The notes below the pieces were generated by a model. That model was not told where the DNA came from, did not search any database, and saw only the letters and a list, made by a program, of their open reading frames with translations. Positions 1 to 31,123 of a stretch of 44,567 nucleotides of DNA are shown here, piece after piece (the first letter of the stretch is position 1; every line of letters starts with the position of its first letter). The DNA is from Planctomycetota bacterium (GTDB taxonomy: Bacteria > Planctomycetota > Planctomycetia > Pirellulales > Pirellulaceae). The stretch is taken from contig JBEGUT010000001.1 in NCBI GenBank assembly GCA_041178745.1, positions 1 to 44,567 on the forward strand, given 5' to 3'. Made by a program: the position numbers and the translations under genes.

Positions 1-280
1 TCGATCAATTCTTTTGGAAGCCCACGATTTTAGGTCTGCTTACCTAACTTGGCAATGCCAAATGATTTGCCTAAAGGATCGGTTTTAGTGGCTCGAATTT
101 CGAGCTTTGGGAGCATTTTTCGGGCAAATTCGCTGGTGTTGCCCCTTTATTGCCTGCGTAAGGCCGTTTTTTGGCAGTCGCCAATTTACTACGACTGGCC
201 GATGTCTAAGTCCAAGTTAAATATCAAGGATAGCCTCTTATGGCCATCGTACCGGCCTTTTTCCTGGATGGGTCTATCGA

Positions 281-1072
281 CTTGCTGGCAAATCAAAAAG
301 GTAAGCCAGTAAGCGGGGACAGTTTTTGTTCGAGTCGACGTGCATGACTGCTAGCAAACCACGAGGAAGAGAGGACAGTCCTTGTTCCGTGCTTGTTCCG
401 TGGATTGGTCGATTGGCTTGCTAGCGATTAAAAAAACCAACTAGAAAAACTAACTAGGACAGTCCTTGTTCGCATCGACATTCTCGCCCTGCTAGCAAGC
501 TTACGTAAGACGGCGGAAGACAGGACAGTCCTCGTTCTTTTGTTGCAGGTCGGCGCCAGTTGCTAGCAAATCACACTGAAGACCGTGAAGCGAGGACAGT
601 CCATGTTCTGCGGAGTCGTTGATCGACTTGCTAGCAAATCCTCCGCAGCAAACTGAGATACCAGGGGAAGAGAGGACAGTCCTTGTTCTCGGCTGACTTG
701 CTAGCAAATCAAAAAGGGAAACCGGGACAGTCCTGTTCGCCTTGATGTCCTCGCCCTGCTAGCAAACTTACGTAAGACGGCGGAAGACAGGACAGTCCTC
801 GTTCTTTTGTTGCAGGTCGGCGATAGTTGCTAGCAAATCCCACTGAAGACCGTGAAGGCAGGACAGTCCTTGTTCTTTGGAGTCGCTCATCGACTTGCTA
901 GCAAATCCCCCGGCAGCAAGCGGAGGTACCAGGGGAAGAGAGGACAGTCCATGTTCTTGTTCACTTGTTGAAGATTGGCTCGGCTTGATAGTTTAACTTG
1001 ATGAAGAAAGTGAAGACGGGACAGTCCTTGTTGCGTGTTGTTGCGTGGATGACAACAGCTTGCTAGCAAACT
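281..1072 (+). repeat. Mosaic intergenic repeat array A: about 11 units alternating a GGACAGTCCTTGTTC-type module with a TTGCTAGCAA-type module
   Basis: Read directly. GGACAGT cores start near 317 (degenerate), 373, 457, 523, 594, 674, 725, 790, 861, 942 and 1019. GCTAGC cores are at 350, 420, 491, 562, 630, 700, 758, 829, 897 and 1062, plus a GCTGGC variant at 284. Block about 457-690 recurs at about 724-957 (offset 267-268 bp). Confidence 0.9.
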
Positions 1073-4060: not shown

Positions 4061-5320
4061 ATGACAACCGTGCGTTTGGATGAAGGTTTGGTCAAAGGGG
4101 ATAGTGTTTCGAAGATCTTGCAGCGAGCTTTGGATGCAGGTGAAGGTTTGTTGCGACTGACACCAACCTGGGTACCTCGCAGTTTCTTGCATCCTGGTCG
4201 CCGCATTAAACTTTTTCCTGGCGATCTTTACGCGTTTGGAGCAGACCGTGGTGGTATCGATGAGCGTTGGTTTGCCAGTACCACGGAAGCGGCTAACGAC
4301 GGTCGCGTTTGGCATGAAGGTTTGAGCTTCTGCTTGTTCGAAGGGCAAAAGTTTTTGCTCAAAGATGCAGTCGCTGAAGCGGGAGCACGGTTGATCGGCA
4401 ATTCAATTTTCGGCAAGTACAACCGCTGGCCCGTCTACTCGAAGTTCTTCGACAACATGGGGCCAATTCCTCACCACATGCACCAGTCGCAGAAAGATGC
4501 GGCGCTTGTGGGACAGGAAGGAAAACCCGAAAGCTATTACTTCCCGCCACAATACAACAACGTTGACAACAACTTCTGTTACACCTTCATGGGCCTAGAG
4601 CCTGGAACGACCAAAGAAGATTTGCGTCGTTGTTTGGCTAACTGGAATAAAGGTGATAACGGTATTTTGGATCTGTCCCGAGCTTACCGTTTGAAGCGTG
4701 GTACCGGTTGGTTGATTCCCCCAGGTGTTTTGCATGCACCAGGCTCGCTCTGCACGTACGAGCCTCAGTGGGGCAGTGACGTGTTTGGTATGTTCCAATC
4801 GATCGTCGAAGGTCGCTATGTACCTTGGTCATTGTTGGTCAAAGATATGCCGAAGGATAAGCATCAAGATCTCGACTTCATCATCGGCCAGCTCGACTGG
4901 GAAAAGAACGTAGATACACATTTCAAGGACAGTAATTACATCGAACCGATTGTCGATAGCGAACGAAGTGGTCCCGGTTATACCGACAAGTGGATTGTTT
5001 ATGGATCGATTGACAAGCAGCAATTGTTCTCGGCTAAGGAGTTGACCGTCGAACCAGGTGCGAGGTGCATACTCAAGGATCCAGGCGCCAGCGGTTGGAT
5101 CACTGTGCAGGGCAAGGGAACTATCGGCAAGCTCGCTTTACAAACACCTGCGATGATTCGTTTCGGAGAGAACACTGAGGACGAAGTGTTTATTTCGCAC
5201 GAAGCTGCTACTCGGGGTGTAGAAGTGGTCAACACGGGCGCTGAGCCGCTGGTAGGTCTTCGTTACTTTGGTCCAGACGTTCACGCGAACATGCCAGCCA
5301 ATGGCGCATGGAAGAAGTAG
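4061..5320 (+). CDS. Cupin-type sugar isomerase-like protein (phosphomannose-isomerase-like); function uncertain
   Basis: 419-aa ORF with His-rich GPIPHHMHQSQ and a later WLIPPGVLHAPGS...YEPQ, resembling metal ligands of PMI-type cupins. The ORF is solid; the family call is tentative. Confidence 0.45.
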   Translation: MTTVRLDEGLVKGDSVSKILQRALDAGEGLLRLTPTWVPRSFLHPGRRIKLFPGDLYAFGADRGGIDERWFASTTEAANDGRVWHEGLSFCLFEGQKFLLKDAVAEAGARLIGNSIFGKYNRWPVYSKFFDNMGPIPHHMHQSQKDAALVGQEGKPESYYFPPQYNNVDNNFCYTFMGLEPGTTKEDLRRCLANWNKGDNGILDLSRAYRLKRGTGWLIPPGVLHAPGSLCTYEPQWGSDVFGMFQSIVEGRYVPWSLLVKDMPKDKHQDLDFIIGQLDWEKNVDTHFKDSNYIEPIVDSERSGPGYTDKWIVYGSIDKQQLFSAKELTVEPGARCILKDPGASGWITVQGKGTIGKLALQTPAMIRFGENTEDEVFISHEAATRGVEVVNTGAEPLVGLRYFGPDVHANMPANGAWKK

Positions 5321-10029: not shown

Positions 10030-10168
10030 GAGTTCCACGCGGTGCGAGTCAGACGCTGGATGGAAGTTGTGGCGGTGTGGCTAGCGAGAGTGCAGTGACA
10101 TCGGGCCTATCGTTTAGACTTTAGAGGTCAGGCCAACGAGCGAATATTGGGGTGTAGAAATAAACGAA

Positions 10169-10220
10169 GCCGATACCTAAGGGCTCGTGAGAGCTGGCTT
10201 AAGTATCGGCCTTGTTTTTC
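10169..10220 (+). terminator. Long hairpin plus T-tract (intrinsic terminator, possibly bidirectional)
   Basis: GCCGATACCTAAG...CTTAAGTATCGGC (13 bp, one mismatch) encloses an inner GGCTC-GTGA-GAGCT stem and is followed by CTTGTTTTT. It lies between convergent genes. Confidence 0.65.
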
Positions 10221-10590
10221 CTATCGGCTGTTGGCGGCAAAAAATGGAGCCGCTGCGAGAATGGCGAAAGTCGGGCGTGCTACTGCACTTGCCCTTATTG
10301 ACCTTGGCCAACGCAAGTTTTTGGTCCCTCTGCCGAAATGACAGCCTACAGGATCGTGCGGGTACATTCACCCCGCTTCTGTATCATAGACCAGAGTGAA
10401 CTGGTCGCAAGGTACATCGGAATTCAACCACGGCGACTTTCGCTAAATTTTACAATTATTTGATTGGACAAATGGTTTATCGGGCTTGGTATTGCAGTGG
10501 TTGCATCTTGAGTGAAACCAAAGAAAAATTTCTTTGACAAACTAAAGAAAATATTTTCTTCGATTTACGCTGCGGGATGTTTCGATATCG

Positions 10591-11796
10591 CTAGCGATGG
10601 CACAGAGACACCACCGCATTGATCAAGTGATCCATATCGGATTTTCCGTGATAGAGATGGCAAGAGACACGGATGAGATATCGCCCTTGGAAAAAAATAA
10701 TCGGAACTTCGATGCGATAATGGTCCCATAACTGCCTTTGTAGATTGCTCCAATCTCCATCAGGCAGCCAAACTGCGGCCATCCAGCCGTAGAGTGAGTT
10801 GGCTGAGGTATCTGGCACGATGGGAGTGGTACCAAGTCGTTCAGAGAGTTGTTTGCGCACGTAGTCTGCGAGTTGATGATTTCGTTTTCGAAGTCGATTC
10901 AAGTCGAATTGACTAAAGAAATCGACCGCTGTCGGCACGCTCAGGTAAGGGCTGTAATCGCGTGTTCCGACCCAAATTTGGTGATCGGTCCAGTGTCGTA
11001 GTTCGCCCGGTGGGAGGCGACCCCAACTGATTTCAAAAGGTACTGCGAGTGCTTGCCACTGCGGTGCAATATAGGTGAAGCCGCTTCCCAGAGGAGCGCT
11101 GAGCCATTTATGGCAACTCGCGGTATAGAAATCACATTTCAATTGATCGATACTCAGCGGCAATTGGAGAATGGTGTGAGGACCATCAACACAGACTGCG
11201 GCGCCGCTGCGATGGGCCAGTTCAGTAAGTTCAGCAATCGGCAAAATCATAGCTGTCGGTGAAGTGATTTGGCTGAGGATGAGTAGGCGAGTTTGTGGTG
11301 AGATTGCCTTTCGATAGCGGTCGATGATTTCATCGTGAGATTCGATTGGAAACGATAGATCCATTTCGCGATATGATCCACCGGTCTGTCGGCAACGGCG
11401 TTGCCATATTTTTTTTACAGCGCCGTATTCATGCTGGTTGAGAAGTACTTCTTCACCCGGTTTCAACGGAAAGAAGCTGGCGATGTGATTCATGCCAGTC
11501 GTGGCACAAGTGCAGAAGGCGAGATTCTCAGGATTGGTTCCAAGGAATGTAGCGAGTTTTTCGCGAGCAGCCCACCAGGCAGGTTCAAGCTGCCGGAGAT
11601 AGAAGTCCATCGGATTGGAGGTGCAGCGCAGGCTCCATTGATCGCGATCCTGAAGTACCTTGCGAGGCGATAAACCGAAAGCTCCATGATTTAGGTAGAG
11701 TATATTGGGATCTAGATCCCAGGGTTCGCGATAACCGACGCTCCAGTCGTCGAGGACCTGGTTTAGCGAATTTGGTGTGAACGAGAACGAATTCAT
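10591..11796 (-). CDS. Class V aminotransferase-fold PLP enzyme (isopenicillin-N-epimerase / cysteine-desulfurase-like)
   Basis: LNHGAFGLSP near the N-terminus and the PLP-lysine context YTASCHKWLSAPLGSGF; 401 aa. There is a 4-nt overlap with the upstream regulator gene. Confidence 0.8.
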   Translation of the reverse strand: MNSFSFTPNSLNQVLDDWSVGYREPWDLDPNILYLNHGAFGLSPRKVLQDRDQWSLRCTSNPMDFYLRQLEPAWWAAREKLATFLGTNPENLAFCTCATTGMNHIASFFPLKPGEEVLLNQHEYGAVKKIWQRRCRQTGGSYREMDLSFPIESHDEIIDRYRKAISPQTRLLILSQITSPTAMILPIAELTELAHRSGAAVCVDGPHTILQLPLSIDQLKCDFYTASCHKWLSAPLGSGFTYIAPQWQALAVPFEISWGRLPPGELRHWTDHQIWVGTRDYSPYLSVPTAVDFFSQFDLNRLRKRNHQLADYVRKQLSERLGTTPIVPDTSANSLYGWMAAVWLPDGDWSNLQRQLWDHYRIEVPIIFFQGRYLIRVSCHLYHGKSDMDHLINAVVSLCHR

Positions 11797-12467
11797 GATG
11801 GGTGAGTAGTTTCAATGAGGACCATGATTTTTTCGGCGACATCGAAAGAAAGGATTGTGTTTCGTCCATCGATATGAATCTGCACGATGCGCGCCAGCGG
11901 ATCGCTTTGGATAATGTCCCCTTTTGCGTGTGGGATTAGACCATGTTCATGAAGATAGCGAAGAAAGTCAGCCGCTTGTTCCGTGACACGCTGGATAGTA
12001 ATCGAAGTTCCTGATGGACATGCAGCAAGACTGAGTTGGCTAGCGACTCCCACAGTTCCGTCCGCTTTCGGAATCGGATCGCCATGGGGATCGAAAGCGG
12101 GATGGCCTAAAAAGTGGTCGATTCGATCAATAAGCAAGTCACTGACAGCGTGTTCCATATTCTCCGCTTCTTCGTGCACTTGATCCCAAGTGAGATGAAG
12201 GGTTTGAACTAGGAATAATTCGATCAGTCGATGTCGACGAAGCACACGAAGAGCGAGTTGTTGTCCTTTCTCTGTTAGAGTTACTCCGCCGTATGGCGTG
12301 TAATCTGCGAGATCGCTTTCGCGCAGCGTTTTGAGCATGCTGGTGACAGAGCCGGGTGAAACTTGCAGGGCCGTAGCGATAGCGCCCGTAGTAGCTGGCT
12401 CGTGGTCTTTATCCAAGCACAACAGATAGATGGCTTTGACATAATTCTCTACTGTCAGGCTTGGCAA
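11793..12467 (-). CDS. DtxR/MntR-family metal-dependent transcriptional repressor with a C-terminal FeoA/SH3-like domain
   Basis: N-terminal ENYVKAIYLL wHTH, metal-site region VHEEAENMEH and a C-terminal FeoA-like domain; TTG start. Confidence 0.85.
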   Translation of the reverse strand: MPSLTVENYVKAIYLLCLDKDHEPATTGAIATALQVSPGSVTSMLKTLRESDLADYTPYGGVTLTEKGQQLALRVLRRHRLIELFLVQTLHLTWDQVHEEAENMEHAVSDLLIDRIDHFLGHPAFDPHGDPIPKADGTVGVASQLSLAACPSGTSITIQRVTEQAADFLRYLHEHGLIPHAKGDIIQSDPLARIVQIHIDGRNTILSFDVAEKIMVLIETTHPS

Positions 12468-17660: not shown

Positions 17661-18119
17661 TCACTGTTTTGCGTTCTTGAGCCAATGAAGTAATTCGCGG
17701 AGATTGCGGGGATTCTGGCCTAGATCCCCTTTTCCTATCCGCGACCGGCTTATGGCGTTGACCATGGTTCCTTCTGCGGTAGAGGTTAACGTGACATAGA
17801 TGTCATCGCTGAAGCGGAGTAGGGCGGTTGTGCGGACCAGATGGATCTTGCGCGCTGAGGGATCGATCGTCGAGGAATCGATGAAGCTCCAAAGTGGGAG
17901 TTCGGACGGGAGGCGGCGAAGCGAATTTTCCAGGGCATCGGGGGTGGCGGAAGAAGTCCAGGTTCGCAGCCTTTGGTCCTTGGCAGCGGGAGATGTTTCG
18001 GCCACATTGGTGGAGAGGTCGCGCGACCAATCTTCGATGTATGAAAAAATCCAAACTGTGATCGCTACAGCTACAATGGCCACAGCGATACCGATCCAGC
18101 GAAAGAGGTCTGTTGTCAT
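17661..18119 (-). CDS. DUF1499-family protein with an N-terminal membrane anchor
   Basis: N-terminal TM (WIGIAVAIVAVAITVWIF) and a C-terminal RFSDDIYV...SRSRIGKGDLGQNPRNLRELL block typical of DUF1499. Confidence 0.65.
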   Translation of the reverse strand: MTTDLFRWIGIAVAIVAVAITVWIFSYIEDWSRDLSTNVAETSPAAKDQRLRTWTSSATPDALENSLRRLPSELPLWSFIDSSTIDPSARKIHLVRTTALLRFSDDIYVTLTSTAEGTMVNAISRSRIGKGDLGQNPRNLRELLHWLKNAKQ

Positions 18120-19449
18120 GGATCTATTTGAAAATATGGAACGGGATAATAGGCGTCAAAACGAGCCGCTGGCCGCGCGTATGCGACCTCGCGATTTGTC
18201 AGAGTATATCGGACAAGAGCATTTTTTGGGGCCTGGCAAGCTGCTACGCCGTTTGATCGATGCAAAAAGATTGGGATCGATCCTGCTTTATGGCCCACCT
18301 GGTACAGGTAAAACGACGCTCGCACATCTCCTAGCCAAGCACACTGGTGGTGCTTTTCGGCAGCTTAGCGCGGTGACTAGCGGGGTCAAGGAGTTACGGG
18401 AAGTTCTGCAATGGGCGCAGGATGAAGTATCATCCGGACAGCCCAAGCCGCTGCTATTTATCGATGAGATTCATCGCTTTAATCGATCTCAGCAAGATGC
18501 ACTGTTACCTGATGTGGAGTCGGGGATCATCAGTTTGATCGGGGCGACAACGAGTAATCCTTTTTTTGCGGTCAATGGCGCGTTGCTCAGTCGCAGTCAG
18601 ATCTTTCAGTTGCAGCCGCTCCAAGAATCTCAAATTGTTCAATTGCTTGAGCGAGCTATTGCGGATAAGGAACGCGGATTGGGTTGGATACCGATTCAAG
18701 CAGAGAAGGCTGCGCTGGAGTACCTTGCGAGAATTGTAGAAGGGGATGCAAGGCAGGCGTTGGGGGCTTTGGAGGTGGCTGTACTATCCTGTCCTAAGCG
18801 GCCTGTCGTGATTGATTTGCCGCTAGCACAGGAGTCGGTGCAGCAGAAGTTGATTCAATTCGATCCTTCTGGTGATCAGCATTACGACATGGCCAGTGCG
18901 TTGATCAAGAGTATTCGAGGGAGCGATCCCGATGCCTCGTTGTATTGGCTGGCACGGATGCTGGAAAGTGGCGAGGATATAAGGTTTCTTTGTCGAAGGT
19001 TAGTGATTTTGGCAAGTGAGGATGTTGGTAACGCGGATCCGAACGCGTTAACGTTAGCTGTAGCTGCAATGCAAGCATGTGAATTTATTGGTTTGCCAGA
19101 AGCACAGCTGACTTTGTCACAAACGGTTATTTACCTCGCTTGCGCGCCGAAAAGTAATTCCGCAACGGTTGCTATCGGATTAGCTCGGCAGGAAGTTCGG
19201 CAAGGTCAGTTGATTCCTGTGCCTATTCATTTGCGTGATAAACATTATGCAGGTGCCGATCAGTTGGGGCATGGAAAGGGCTATCAGTATTCGCACAACA
19301 GTGACGATGGTGTTGCAGCTCAGGATTACCTCGGTGTGGATCGCATCTTTTACACACCGACCGATCGAGGTGCGGAGCGGGAGATTGGTGAGCGGCTCTT
19401 AAGGATTCGCGAAAGATTGCAGGAAGCGAAGAAGGGCAGTGCATCGTAA
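18118..19449 (+). CDS. rarA: Replication-associated recombination protein A (AAA+ ATPase)
   Basis: PLAARMRP..L.EYIGQEH, Walker A GPPGTGKTT, DEIHRFN.SQQDALLP, GDAR.AL, SIRGSDPDA.LYW..RM, ASEDVGNADP, YLA.APKSN. The listed ORF start at 17800 is an upstream extension; ATG 18118 matches the RarA N-terminus. Confidence 0.9.
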   Translation: MDLFENMERDNRRQNEPLAARMRPRDLSEYIGQEHFLGPGKLLRRLIDAKRLGSILLYGPPGTGKTTLAHLLAKHTGGAFRQLSAVTSGVKELREVLQWAQDEVSSGQPKPLLFIDEIHRFNRSQQDALLPDVESGIISLIGATTSNPFFAVNGALLSRSQIFQLQPLQESQIVQLLERAIADKERGLGWIPIQAEKAALEYLARIVEGDARQALGALEVAVLSCPKRPVVIDLPLAQESVQQKLIQFDPSGDQHYDMASALIKSIRGSDPDASLYWLARMLESGEDIRFLCRRLVILASEDVGNADPNALTLAVAAMQACEFIGLPEAQLTLSQTVIYLACAPKSNSATVAIGLARQEVRQGQLIPVPIHLRDKHYAGADQLGHGKGYQYSHNSDDGVAAQDYLGVDRIFYTPTDRGAEREIGERLLRIRERLQEAKKGSAS

Positions 19450-19578
19450 CTGGTCGATGGCCGGCTGGTTTTTCAGATGTTAACCAAAAGTTTCTCCGAT
19501 GACGCTCATCTTTTGATGACATTCATATTTTGAAAAACGATTCTAGATCTTTTACGACTGCAACTCCGATCGATCAAA

Positions 19579-20130
19579 TTTTCCCTTTTGAATTGCTAGC
19601 AAGTCGAACGACGAATCTACGGAACAAGGACTGTCCTCTCTTCCGCGTGGTTTGCTAGCAGTTCATGCACGTCATCCCGAACCAGGACTGTCCCGGTTTC
19701 CCTTTTGAATTGCTAGCAAGTCGATCGACGAGACCATGGAACAAGGACTGTCCTCTCTTCCGCGTGGTTTGCTAGCACATCATGCATGTCAACTCGAACC
19801 AGGACTGTCCCGGTTTTCCCTTTTGAATTGCTAGCAAGTCGATCGATAAGTCGATGGAACAAGGACTGTCCTCTCTTAACACTGTGCTGAGTGCGAATTG
19901 CTAGCGGGACCGGGCGATTTGCAGCAAAAGAACCAGGACTGTCCCGTCTTTTTTTGGTTGCTAGCATGTCGAGAACTTAGATGCGAGCAAGGACTGTCCT
20001 CTCTTCTGCGAGATTAGCAAGCAAGTCGAATCGGTCTGTCGCAAGAGAACAAGAAGAGAACAAGGACTGTCCCGGTTTCTTGGGGTGAGGGGCGAACAAC
20101 GATCGTTCTTTTTTCGGAGAATGCTAGCAA
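19579..20130 (-). repeat. Mosaic intergenic repeat array B: same family as A and C, inverted orientation, about 8-9 units
   Basis: GGACTGTCC cores at 19628, 19685, 19745, 19802, 19863, 19936, 19991 and 20064. GCTAGC cores at 19595, 19654, 19712, 19771, 19830, 19900, 19960 and 20123, plus a degenerate copy near 20013. The dimer unit repeats at 19581, 19698 and 19816. Confidence 0.9.
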
Positions 20131-20473
20131 TTCACCATAAGAATATTCGGCGACTGCAGTTGCTATCTTGGTTTGAGAAGGAGTTGCAAGACACGACGTG
20201 ACTCCAAAAGGGAGTGACGATTTCTCGAAATGATAGCCTTTCTAAAGTCGTCATTTTTTCTTTTTAGAATCTGTATTCTTTTCGAGTGTTTTGATGGCGA
20301 TAGGTCGCGGGGTTAACGTCATGCTCGTTGGGAGTCAAATTGCTGAGAAGTTTCATAAAGGGTGAAGTTCCTCTTGAGGGGAAGACGAGTTGCAGGCTAT
20401 ACACGCCGCTACTGGAGTTAGTTGGAGGAGTTGTGTTAGCGTTTGGACTTGGGGAGTATGGAGATTTCTATCG

Positions 20474-21022
20474 ATGCCAATACCACATTTTGACGCGACG
20501 ACTTCCGAAGCACTCCACTTTCTTTTCCTGTGGTCGGGATATGGAAGTTTGGTAGGTTTGACGGCAAAGGCAATTATGCCCGGTCGCGATGGTGGCGGGG
20601 CGTTAGCAACTTGGGCGTTAGGTTTGGGGGGAGGATTGATTGGTAATGTGGTTTTAGCGTTGCTGACCAATGAGCCTTTTGACTTGATGACTCCCTATGG
20701 TATCGTCGCTGCGGTTGCAGGTTCCTTTGGATTGCTTTTGGTCTATCGATTGAGCGATGGAAAGTTTTGGGAAGACGAGCCGCAGAAACCAAGGTTGAGG
20801 GAACTGGCTCCGGAGGAAATTGCTGACTTGCCGAGGCCGAAGCGTTTGCGTCGTCGCAAGGCCTGGTTTGATGAACAACGCATGGACACAACTGAGACGG
20901 GTGAGAGTTACTCGGAACCGGAGATACATCGAATCGAGCGAGTGACTCGGCAATTGTTGACGCACAAGACAACGCGAAGTTCTCCTGTGCGCCAAACGCT
21001 AGAAGAACCTGACGAAGCCTAA
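20474..21022 (+). CDS. GlsB/YeaQ/YmgE (transglycosylase-associated) family membrane protein with a charged C-terminal tail
   Basis: SLVGLTAKAIMPGRDGGGALATWALGLGGGLIGN matches the family signature. ATG 20474 is preferred to the listed 20390 start. Confidence 0.6.
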   Translation: MPIPHFDATTSEALHFLFLWSGYGSLVGLTAKAIMPGRDGGGALATWALGLGGGLIGNVVLALLTNEPFDLMTPYGIVAAVAGSFGLLLVYRLSDGKFWEDEPQKPRLRELAPEEIADLPRPKRLRRRKAWFDEQRMDTTETGESYSEPEIHRIERVTRQLLTHKTTRSSPVRQTLEEPDEA

Positions 21023-26382: not shown

Positions 26383-27345
26383 ATGGCCAAAATGTTGGAT
26401 CGCGTTGATTTGCGAGGTCTTATACCACCGCTGGTAAGCCCGGTGAATTTTGACGGAAGTTTGGATCTCGAAGGGACGAGACGATTAGTGGATCATGTGA
26501 TCGATGGTGGGGCTGCGGGGTTATTTATTTTGGGAACATGCGGCGAAGGTGCGGCCTTAAGTTATCGAAAGCGATACCAGTTTGTAGAGGCAGTTTGTGA
26601 AGCAGCAGCGGGACGGTTACCGGTGTTGGTTAGTGTGAGCGATACGAGCTTAGAGGAAGCGTTGGATCTGGCAACGCACTCATTCGCTTCCGGCGCATCG
26701 GCTGTTGTTTCGACTGGGCCTTACTTTCTTCCAGTACCTTCAGGACATATGGAAACGTATTTCCAAAGACTGGCGGACGAAAGTGCTTTGCCGCTAGTTT
26801 TGTACAACATGCCTGGCTGCACCAAGTTCAGCATTGCGCCAGCAGTTGTGGGACGCTTGGCAAAGCATCCCAGGATATTGGGTATCAAGGATAGTTCTGG
26901 AGATTTGAATTACGTCCGCGAACTTATTGCTGCAGTTGCTGGCCAAAGTTTTCCGGTGATGATTGGCCCGGAGGAATTGTTATTGCCAGCGATGGAGTTG
27001 GGCGCCGTTGGTGGCGTTAATGGTGGAGGTTTGTTGTTTCCCCAAGTGTATTCGGCTCGCATCGAAGCGTTTCGGCGGGGTGATTTTGATCTAGCGAAAA
27101 AGGCCGATGAATTTGTTCAAACGCTTAGTCGACAACTCTATTCAGCACCCTCGGGGCGAATGGCAGTCATTGAAGCATTGAAGCTCAGCTTGTCGTTGTT
27201 GGGGATATGTCAGCCTTGGGTACTTTCCCCTTTATTGCCGTTGGAAGAGGAGCATCGTCAGCGGATTACCCGATCCATTCCCGATCTCGAATTGATGGCA
27301 CATCAGTTGTGCCCCACCACAAAGCTGCACACTTCTTCCGTTTGA
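26383..27345 (+). CDS. Dihydrodipicolinate synthase / N-acetylneuraminate lyase family aldolase
   Basis: GLFILGTCGEGAALS (GTxGE motif), YNMPG and the Schiff-base lysine context ILGIKDSSGD. The start could be ATG 26374 or 26383. Confidence 0.8.
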   Translation: MAKMLDRVDLRGLIPPLVSPVNFDGSLDLEGTRRLVDHVIDGGAAGLFILGTCGEGAALSYRKRYQFVEAVCEAAAGRLPVLVSVSDTSLEEALDLATHSFASGASAVVSTGPYFLPVPSGHMETYFQRLADESALPLVLYNMPGCTKFSIAPAVVGRLAKHPRILGIKDSSGDLNYVRELIAAVAGQSFPVMIGPEELLLPAMELGAVGGVNGGGLLFPQVYSARIEAFRRGDFDLAKKADEFVQTLSRQLYSAPSGRMAVIEALKLSLSLLGICQPWVLSPLLPLEEEHRQRITRSIPDLELMAHQLCPTTKLHTSSV

Positions 27346-27370
27346 TTCTGACGCGGTAGTTCGCGCTTCA

Positions 27371-27897
27371 CTCGCTAGCATTCTCCCCTAAAACCGGGAC
27401 AGTCCTTGTTCGCGTGCCCCCCAGCCTGCTAGCAAACCACGCTGAAGACAGGACAGTCCTTGTTCTCAGGTCGCAGCTGGGCACGATTTGCTAGCGAATC
27501 TCGCTGAAACTAGAGCGAAGACGGGACAGTCGTTGTTCCGGTCGAACCCGAATCGATCTGCTAGCAAATATCATCTCGAAAAGAGAAGACAGGACAGTCC
27601 TTGTTCTCTGGTTGCAGCTCGGCTCGAATTGCTAGCAAATCAAAAAGGGAAGACTGGGAAAGTCAAGAAAGGACAGTCCTTGTTCTCGGCCGCTGAAACC
27701 GGGACAGTCCTTTTTCCTTGGGTGCGTCAATCGATTTGCTAGCAAGCCACGCAAAAGACAGGACAGTCCTGGTTCCTGCCTTTGTGTTAACATGCCCGAA
27801 CTGCTAGCAAATCAAAAAGGGAAACCGGGACAGTCGTTTCTCCTGTCTTATTCGTTTTGCTGGCAAATCAGAGGCAAGCCAGGGAAGTCGTTGTTCG
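27371..27897 (+). repeat. Mosaic intergenic repeat array C: same family and orientation as A, about 8-9 units
   Basis: GGACAGTC cores at 27397, 27451, 27524, 27592, 27671, 27702, 27761 and 27828, plus a degenerate copy near 27883. GCTAGC cores at 27374, 27428, 27490, 27560, 27631, 27738 and 27803, plus a GCTGGC variant at 27859. Confidence 0.9.
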
Positions 27898-30838: not shown

Positions 30839-31054
30839 ATGAATGGGAAGGAAGTGATTTTACATCTGCTCAAGGAAGGGGAATGGAACCAAGCCATTTT
30901 GCTGTACCGTGAAGAAACAGGTGTCCCTCGCCGGCAAGCGATTCGCGAAGTCCAGCATCTAGCCCACCTCCATCATCTGCAGCCCGCCATTCCCTGGCTT
31001 TGGAAACGCACGACAAAAACATCAGCACCCTCTAACGACTCAAAGTCCAGGTGA
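30839..31054 (+). CDS. Small hypothetical protein (L7/L12 C-terminal-domain-like motif)
   Basis: 71-aa ORF. LLYREETGVPRRQAIREVQHL resembles the REITGLGLKEAKDLVE helix-turn of L7/L12-CTD-like small proteins. Confidence 0.4.
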   Translation: MNGKEVILHLLKEGEWNQAILLYREETGVPRRQAIREVQHLAHLHHLQPAIPWLWKRTTKTSAPSNDSKSR

Positions 31055-31123
31055 GCTTGCTGGTTTTTGTAACCCAATCAACAGTGCCGAACTAAGCTGC
31101 GAAGCGATTTTCCCGCGAAAAGG

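Follow-up and report, generated by a model that had tools for sequence, protein, structure and literature searches.

The DNA analysed here (the window hereafter) is a stretch of 44,567 nucleotides from a Planctomycetota contig (JBEGUT010000001.1), which its RarA homologues place in the Pirellulaceae, with metagenome-assembled genomes as the nearest named matches. Our subject is array B, a tandem repeat array in the intergenic region between rarA, assigned by its Pfam domains, and a gene for a membrane protein, together with arrays A and C of the same family elsewhere in the window (Table 1). The open reading frame (ORF) downstream of array B has no Pfam match; it aligns with 74/82 positions of the YeaQ model NF007771 (E 1.8e-8, under the equivalog cut-off). 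We take YeaQ to be a protein of the GlsB/YeaQ/YmgE family, and the name "GlsB-like" that a preliminary description of the locus had given to this gene is acceptable at the level of the domain.

Segmentation of the sequence resolved array B into 8 monomers arranged head to tail. Tandem Repeats Finder reported a period of 117 over its first part (2.5 copies, 91% matches, score 500) and an additional, weaker sub-period of 57 nt, and the motif TTGCTAGCAA recurs with starts at 19593, 19710 and 19828, that is, in steps of 117 and 118 bp. Of the motif AGGACTGTCC the window holds 22 copies where 0.04 would be expected, a count reached in 0/100 shuffles, and all 22 lie inside the three arrays, on the plus strand in B and on the minus strand in A and C; likewise, the 32 matches of TTGCTAGCA (0.34 expected) fall in arrays only. 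These counts by strand agree with the preliminary description, in which the three arrays belong to a single family and B runs opposite to A and C; B is also the most regular of the three, as it had stated. Its proposal that two flavours of the GGAC-N-GTCC palindrome take turns also holds, through 8/8 units of array B (T-type TCTCTT.. and C-type CGGTTT../CGTCTT..). The window is a short-read metagenome contig and Logan contigs of the same organism end inside array B, so the exact number of dimers is uncertain.

For logos and counts, 11 arrays (3 in the window and 8 at related loci) were segmented, which gave 91–92 distinct units. The monomer of 57–71 bp consists of two boxes, P1 (GATTTGCTAGCAAgTCGA) and P2 (GAACAAGGACTGTCCYSKYTTC), with variable linkers between them. 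The P1 box is GATTTGCTAGCAAgTC (family logo GATTTGCTAGCAAGTCGA), with symmetry over up to 16 bp; its central G/C positions are 97–100% conserved, and the perfect 16-bp palindrome GATTTGCTAGCAAATC is present in many units. P2 reads AAGGAC-T-GTCCt, and ACTGTCC is conserved at 98–100%. The P2 block is a 22-nt imperfect palindrome in which symmetry is limited to GGAC-T-GTCC, plus or minus one position (9–11 bp), and its outer stem pairs show no covariation (one pair is Watson-Crick in 18 units against 33.5 expected); the imperfect palindrome of 21–24 bp described earlier therefore shrinks to this centre. Conservation is distributed symmetrically around the centre of each box. The order and orientation of the boxes are fixed, with strict alternation of P1 and P2 (1212...) in ten arrays, and the units keep their polarity, with GAACAA 5' of P2, YTTC 3' of P2 and a T-rich tail 5' of P1. 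Distances between centres have modes of 32.5, 34.5 and 37.5 bp from P1 to P2 and are 24.5–26.5 or 33.5 bp from P2 to P1, and the units are 58–59, 68 or 70–71 bp long. The linkers are near-random at each position of the logo, yet they fall into a few recurrent subtypes (a to d, Table 1) that reappear across different arrays and species.

Table 1. Features of array B, its flanks and the other arrays of the family in the window, with the linker subtypes (limits of arrays A and C are approximate)
Feature	Coordinates	Strand	Remarks
rarA/mgsA (replication-associated recombination protein A)	17881..19449	+	upstream flank of array B; Pfam MgsA_C, AAA_assoc_2, AAA
Terminator-like hairpin and T run	19450..19474	+	directly 3' of the rarA stop codon, 5' of array B
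A+T-rich "leader"	19475..19578	+	between the rarA terminator-like site and the first unit
Array B	19579..20132	+	monomer order P1 - linker - P2 - T-rich tail
Homogeneous part of array B	19579..19877	+	117-bp higher-order repeat of subtype a and subtype b monomers, 2.5 copies, 91% identity
First P1 core, TTGCTAGCAA	19593..19602	no strand	later P1 cores start at 19652, 19710, 19769, 19828, 19898 (variant), 19958
First P2 block, GAACAAGGACTGTCCTCTCTTC	19622..19643	+	from the motif count
P2 cores of array B, GGACTGTCC	starts 19628, 19685, 19745, 19802, 19863, 19936, 19991, 20064		
Older, diverged part of array B	19878..20132	+	c-like and d-like monomers; last unit and array end orthologous in L042 and L019
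Hairpin GAACAACGATCGTTC followed by T run	20094..20114	+	in array orientation, just 5' of the terminal P1-like site; read by eye
Terminal solitary P1-like site, GAATGCTAGCAATTC	20119..20133	no strand	same place in L019 and L042, and in L005 (which lacks the family)
Membrane protein with YeaQ-like N-terminal domain	20474..21022	+	downstream flank of array B
Array A	255..1072	-	10–11 monomers of the array B family, including ~1.8 copies of a 267-bp tetramer
Array C	27371..27880	-	~8 diverged monomers; antisense to its dapA-like and rpsD neighbours
Linker subtype a			GTCGATCGACnAnnCCAyG
Linker subtype b			GtTCATGCACgnCA..
Linker subtype c			..CGnGCCGAnCTGCnnCnAGA
Linker subtype d			GGGCGAGnAnnTCnAnGC

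The family was found in a few freshwater contigs when metagenomes were scanned. By BLAST, one of these, Ga0315900_10000043 (205 kb), shares synteny with the window at 88–93% identity, and it carries arrays at the orthologous sites of A (L048), B (L019, 10 units) and C (L041), and a Lake Mendota-type contig (L042, 83% identity) holds a further orthologue of array B. Array B thus has 8 units in the window, 10 in L019 and 8 in L042, the unit-number variation downstream of rarA that the preliminary description had suggested looking for, and the flanks of orthologous arrays are 83–93% identical. The alternative that it had named, a recent local tandem duplication conserved in neither position nor motif, does not describe what is found in relatives at 83–89% identity, where both are conserved. 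Besides these and a fourth array, D (below), only two further loci were seen, one upstream of znuA on another contig of 261 kb (L024) and L020. The scanned metagenome contigs yielded 6 loci in all, of which 4 lie inside one syntenic block of ~45 kb, so the family is low-copy and locally clustered. An exact-pattern scan of one genome per species (185,579 species) returned only 4 matches, all attributable to chance, and a scan of viral contigs returned single chance matches only. In Rfam 15 no part of the window matched at the gathering score, arrays A and B had no meaningful match even with the limit relaxed to E <= 5, and a search for tRNA and tmRNA genes found none; a literature search by motif text returned mainly primers and eukaryotic constructs, judging by the titles listed. 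Array B is a genuine, non-random repeat array, and its family, which is evolutionarily maintained, consists of lineage-restricted, interspersed intergenic tandem arrays, a bacterial "satellite" of an uncultured freshwater Pirellulaceae clade.

The orthologues show how the arrays are built. The 117-bp unit of array B is a dimer of subtypes a and b, its orthologue in L042 is an a+c dimer (132 bp, 4.1 copies), the orthologue of array A in L048 is a b+a+c trimer (188 bp, 3.7 copies), and array A of the window itself contains a tetramer (267 bp). Since other arrays combine monomers differently, the basic unit is the monomer and not the dimer of roughly 118 bp that had been put forward as the functional unit; the dimer of array B is probably a recent local amplification, a local higher-order repeat of two monomer subtypes. 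In an alignment with the dimers of L019, those of array B carry common species-specific substitutions, such as CTCTTCCGCGTGG in the window for TTCTTCCGCrTGT in L019 and CGAACCA for AGAACAA, a sign of either concerted evolution or recent amplification that took place independently. Towards the 3' end of array B, the last unit, the hairpin with its T run and the terminal P1-like site all have orthologues in three lineages; the 5' part is the dynamic one. The leader is conserved to some degree as well, with 81% identity to L019 over 19450–19592. Arrays of the family therefore hold fixed intergenic slots while they gain and lose units, form different higher-order repeats (117, 132, 188 and 267 bp) and are homogenised within species, and through this turnover the boxes stay nearly invariant. 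Between the consensus dimers of array B in the window and in L019, 1/46 core columns differ against 19/71 non-core columns (Fisher p = 3e-4), so the boxes are constrained far beyond the rest of the unit.

A more distant relative lacks the family. L005 (~75% nucleotide identity) keeps the gene order from an aminotransferase gene to rpsD, and P2 is wholly absent from it; its slots corresponding to arrays B and C are occupied by unrelated tandem repeats with periods of 93–240 bp and palindromes of their own, and a third such array is present. The three arrays lie at 776–1210, 11320–11923 and 19168–19491 (periods 133–155, 166–240 and 93 bp), and two of them have CACCGCGCGTTTGAG in common, so they too represent a dispersed family. 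With the array family L005 shares a single element, a P1-like site (GATGCTAGCAAATC) that closes the rarA-downstream slot; sites of the GAATGCTAGCAATTC type stand at this spot in the window, in L019 and in L042. Further solitary GAWTTGCTAGCA sites with the same flank occur in intergenic DNA of L005 and of L054, another relative without the family. In addition, GGGGACTGTCCCC alternates with TTGCTAGCAA at L022:7440-7608 and L021:80-170, where the surrounding sequence is unrelated; L022 is a planctomycete contig by its DUF1501 and PSCyt genes, and this alternation in an unrelated context indicates that the boxes extend beyond the satellite family. Both boxes are, on this comparison of sequences, older and more widespread than the satellite itself. 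In the cultured relative Rosistilla oblonga, a 147-bp tandem array of 4.2 copies adjoins rarA. It lies between fusA and rarA (L095:3181-3800, CP036292), and its unit, REPIN/MITE-like, is a pair of 32-nt inverted repeats set 64 nt apart. Tandem arrays in intergenic slots are thus common in this bacterial family. Three independent short-read contigs (L006, L055 and L056) end 70–200 bp past rarA, as they might if repeat arrays in the rarA-downstream slot had interrupted their assembly.

Whether the boxes act as DNA or as RNA was approached through folding, strand asymmetry and transcription. The 117-nt unit and its isolated hairpins fold no better than shuffles (z for the unit: RNA plus -0.70, RNA minus -1.32, DNA plus -1.86, DNA minus -2.02). 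The predicted structure of the unit consists mostly of pairing between successive P1 palindromes, and P2 hairpins taken singly are weak, at -4 to -7 kcal/mol on the forward strand, and do not surpass shuffles. Pairing is modestly in excess in the P1 flanks, whose asymmetries are mostly of the G.T type on the forward strand (~72 against 19 A.C), whereas those of the P2 flanks are of the A.C type on the forward strand and hence of the G.T type on the reverse; with P1 pointing to one strand and P2 to the other, no single strand is favoured. The transcript data were assembled contigs that carry no strand information and in which a depth of 0 is not proof of absence. Four metatranscriptomes covered rpsD with its 5' untranslated region (UTR) at depth 4–13 and the 3' end of dapA up to 27380, and the same four gave no RNA contigs on array C, array B or rarA. 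Array A is the only array with metatranscriptome contigs, two of 151 nt in the metatranscriptome X24 (523–629 and 658–808, depth ~4). The ORF adjacent to it (1178–2641) and most of the window have depth 0 in X24, which makes carry-over of DNA unlikely, and the RNA thus includes some portion of array A at the least. On the L024 array, the contigs from RNA amounted to cross-mapping from array A only. No sigma-70-like promoter was found in arrays A, B or C, and terminator-like matches in the arrays are no more frequent than in shuffles. A hairpin followed by a T run stands in array orientation after array A (248–229), array B and the L041 orthologue of C, with a similar one in L042; that of array B was not flagged by the automated promoter and terminator scan. 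The orientation of the arrays relative to the flanking genes differs from one to the next, which, as the preliminary description had argued, speaks against a simple promoter or terminator role.

Our preferred explanation, held tentatively, is that the arrays are clusters of double-stranded-DNA sites at which dimeric proteins would bind, and that unequal recombination has built and homogenised them. The arrays would grow and be homogenised through gene conversion and replication slippage as well as unequal recombination, ectopic recombination would spread them to nearby intergenic regions, and selection would keep P1 and P2 as putative duplex recognition sites of one or more sequence-specific dimeric proteins. 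Each array would then be a cluster of ~8–12 putative binding sites that forms a nucleoprotein block between genes, with a roadblock or insulator, nucleoid structuring and factor titration as candidate roles. Symmetric conservation of the boxes is what would be expected for homodimer sites, and together with the want of a coherent strand signal it favours, on balance, recognition as double-stranded DNA. Also on its side are the motif counts, the arrays at orthologous positions, the constraint on the boxes, the occurrence of P1 and P2 outside the family, the homogenised dimers of array B and the silence of arrays B and C in the four metatranscriptomes that cover rpsD. Several observations weigh against this explanation. 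Neither the distances between P1 and P2 nor the unit lengths are multiples of a helical turn, which makes rigid cooperative binding unlikely; the conserved polarity and asymmetric flanks would not be required by pure dimer sites; and the units stem from few ancestors, so that counts of conservation and symmetry are not independent observations. Scans of the window and the flanking loci with Pfam and NCBIfam found no DNA-binding or mobile-element gene linked to the arrays. The array A contigs in X24, beside an ORF at depth 0, point to RNA, and the hairpins with T runs after the arrays would fit transcription through them. Those arrays that happen to be transcribed may also have an RNA role. A wider version, which we regard as distinctly unlikely, is that the arrays are functional satellite DNA in bacterial form, fixed slots of Pirellulaceae chromosomes being filled with tandem arrays of boxes for putative lineage-specific binders (as nucleoprotein blocks with an insulator, roadblock or chromosome-structuring role), with box and binder co-evolving; this would explain why the slot is kept and the family replaced, the clade of the window, L005 and Rosistilla each having a different one.

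Possible as well, though more doubtful than DNA sites, is an element that works at the RNA level, the arrays being transcribed either within long UTRs (3' or 5') or as non-coding RNAs of their own. In these transcripts P1 would close a CUAG loop with a stem of 6 bp and P2 would fold into a short hairpin around a CUG loop, and both might serve as exonuclease blocks (mRNA stabilisers of the REP kind) or as processing or protein-binding sites. The X24 contigs, the hairpins after the arrays, the excess of G.T deviations in the P1 flanks on the array forward strand and the conserved leader of array B speak for it. On the other hand, arrays B and C are silent in runs that cover rpsD, the dapA 3' end and a neighbouring region resembling a small RNA, array C is antisense to both of its neighbours, and a terminator-like site separates rarA from array B; the outer P2 pairs do not covary, the P2 deviations prefer the strand opposite to that of P1, the folding z-scores are only -0.7 to -2.0, Rfam gives no match even at E <= 5, and the contigs that cover array A are without strand.

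A selfish repeat, with boxes that are sites of a trans-acting transposase or recombinase and arrays that result as a by-product when insertion and recombination recur, of no benefit to the host, is unlikely, be it REP/RAYT-like or MITE-like with GCAA..TTGC ends abutting at TA. It would account for the several loci, the presence of array D (below) in some species and not others, the synteny break exactly at array C in L041, the REP-like palindromic boxes, the Rosistilla unit of inverted repeats and the confinement of the family to a narrow clade; but the scanned metagenome contigs gave no more than 6 loci, 4 of which share one block, the units are all head to tail and never in the inverted pairs typical of BIMEs and REPINs, no GTAG or CGTC tag is conserved (the criterion of PMC3733652), the window and flanking loci contain no transposase in the Pfam and NCBIfam scans, and the positions are stable across 83–89% identity. 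Quite improbable is a neutral minisatellite, in which permissive long intergenic regions gain tandem duplications and the conserved cores reflect recent ancestry and gene conversion. Unrelated repeats in the same two slots and a third in L005, the different array beside rarA in Rosistilla, the evident concerted evolution and the variation of copy number and higher-order period between species are all as this would have it, and are set against linker subtypes that have diverged beyond recognition while the boxes are 97–100% conserved across subtypes, arrays and three species-level lineages, the same two boxes in the unrelated context of L022 and a terminal P1-like site kept even in L005. Scarcely credible is a CRISPR-like or type III antitoxin (ToxI-like) array, which the regular spacing of conserved segments with variable ones between and the position of array B 5' of a small gene might bring to mind: the conserved part is only 10–22 bp per unit, where CRISPR has near-identical repeats of 23–55 bp and unique spacers of one length, the "spacers" vary in length and recur as few subtypes (a to d) across arrays and species, no cas or toxN-like gene was found among 37 window ORFs (Pfam and NCBIfam), the genes next to the arrays are unrelated to each other, and the viral scan gave single chance matches only.

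Other candidates were tried and rejected. Read by eye, the boxes do not make promoters: TTGCTA as a sigma-70 -35 element has no conserved -10 at 16–18 bp, GGAAC as the -35 element of an extracytoplasmic function sigma factor has no CGTC or GTC at 16–17 bp, and the GG-N10-GC spacing of sigma-54 is not present. A coding repeat is contradicted by ORFs that are inconsistent between arrays and unit lengths that are not multiples of 3, and inspection of the array sequences showed no RYYYAAC...GTTRRRY pair of an integron attC/CALIN array. In a CsrA/RsmA sponge (ACA-AGGAC-UGU), the invariant GUCC partner would put GGA in the stem and the loop would be one nucleotide too long. A DtxR/MntR operator was considered in view of a DtxR-family gene at 11793–12467 and of the L024 array 5' of znuA, and P1 seems to be unlike the DtxR/IdeR box. 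The viral contig scan, with its single chance matches, gave nothing for a phage origin, and GC skew, positive over most of the window with no clean switch, nothing for a replication origin or terminus.

The genes downstream of the arrays are mutually unrelated (the YeaQ-like membrane protein, the dapA 3' end and znuA). A further array of the family, D (L023, L029, L009 and L037), adjoins the orthologue of window position ~31117 and has no counterpart in the window; comparison of window 30927–31117 with L023:1-1245 and L029 shows array D and ~1.1 kb of extra sequence in the relatives, absent from the window, including a 259-aa ORF that has no family match. Array C marks a synteny break (window ~27345–27440 against L041:1-4840), to the left of which the window has the dapA-like gene and L041 a gene for an S-adenosylmethionine-dependent methyltransferase. 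Upstream of the YeaQ-like ORF, at 20330–20400, the block GGGTGAAGTTCCTCTTGAGGGGAAGACGAGTTGCAGGCTAT is nearly identical in L042 and partly kept in L019 and L005 despite the diverging intergenic DNA around it, and could be an element of the 5' UTR or a site close to the promoter. Elsewhere in the window, the intergenic region 10160–10430 is 87% identical to L005/L006, against 73–76% for the flanking genes, and has no Rfam match at E <= 1; its expressed part (10205–10396) has the highest RNA contig depth of the window in X24 (33, compared with 4–8 for rpsD) and a depth of 8 in X26, which makes it a candidate for an abundant conserved small RNA of unassigned family. A 419-aa ORF without a Pfam match (4061–5320) is strong in all metatranscriptomes examined, with depth up to 168 near 4462 (X17) and many divergent contigs mapping to 4427–4489, which suggests a conserved, highly expressed planctomycete protein.

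What is unusual here is the combination of two alternating constrained palindromic boxes, higher-order repeats, concerted evolution and conserved slots with turnover of the family that fills them, a set of features usually discussed for eukaryotic satellites. If the boxes bind proteins, they would mark an undescribed DNA-protein system in Planctomycetes, a phylum of unusual cell biology in which few regulators have been characterised; should they act as RNA instead, a new repeat-derived RNA class would be at hand. On a practical level, the arrays break short-read assemblies (the contigs of three relatives stop just past rarA), one of them, array C, coincides with a synteny break, and they could act as variable-number markers for strain typing.

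Among known systems, the STAR element of Staphylococcus aureus (PMC3532100) is closest in architecture, with a direct-repeat core and recurring variable spacers of at least 40 bp; like the array family, it occupies several intergenic loci, expands and contracts at stable loci within a lineage, differs in location between more distant species and has no defined function. Its core is single, 14 bp long, non-palindromic and G+C-rich, T(G/A/T)TGTTG(G/T)GGCCC(C/A) (PMC3532100), a consensus that the P1 and P2 logos do not resemble; the family described here has two alternating palindromic cores and prominent higher-order repeats and belongs to another phylum. REP/BIME elements of Proteobacteria (PMC3733652) are closest in their palindromes and in the alternation of flavours, and are likewise extragenic, with clusters reiterated in tandem together with flanking segments and with species-specific families; protein binding, mRNA stabilisation and termination have been proposed as their roles (PMC3733652). 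REPs, however, are stem-loops of 20–40 nt that bear a GTAG or CGTC tag, usually stand in inverted pairs, number hundreds per genome and are linked to RAYTs (PMC3733652), whereas the cores here measure 10–16 bp and 9–11 bp, are untagged (the logo of 91–92 units shows no conserved GTAG, CTAC, CGTC or GACG beside either box), are all in direct orientation at few loci and have no RAYT in view. Prokaryotic non-coding satellites (Subirana and Messeguer, 2019; PMC6749651) are also tandem, with units longer than 30 nt at several loci per genome; dispersed ones were reported only from Leptospira interrogans and Methanocella conradii among ~260 reference species, and these are of another family and phylum, with neither bipartite palindromes nor conservation at orthologous slots described there. 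The array family has neither the tag nor the inverted orientation that define REP/BIME and, with 6 loci in the metagenome contigs scanned, probably falls short of their copy number; it likewise lacks what defines CRISPR and attC arrays, and it matches no Rfam family. In eukaryotes, alpha-satellites are built of subtype monomers in higher-order repeats, are homogenised by lineage and carry a protein-binding box within variable monomers. The likeness is one of analogy only, turnover of families at conserved positions being common to both, as the arrays here span hundreds of base pairs where alpha-satellites span megabases and show no sign of a role in segregation. The family is a variant of the class of bacterial intergenic repeats, identical to none of these and resembling both REP/BIME and STAR.

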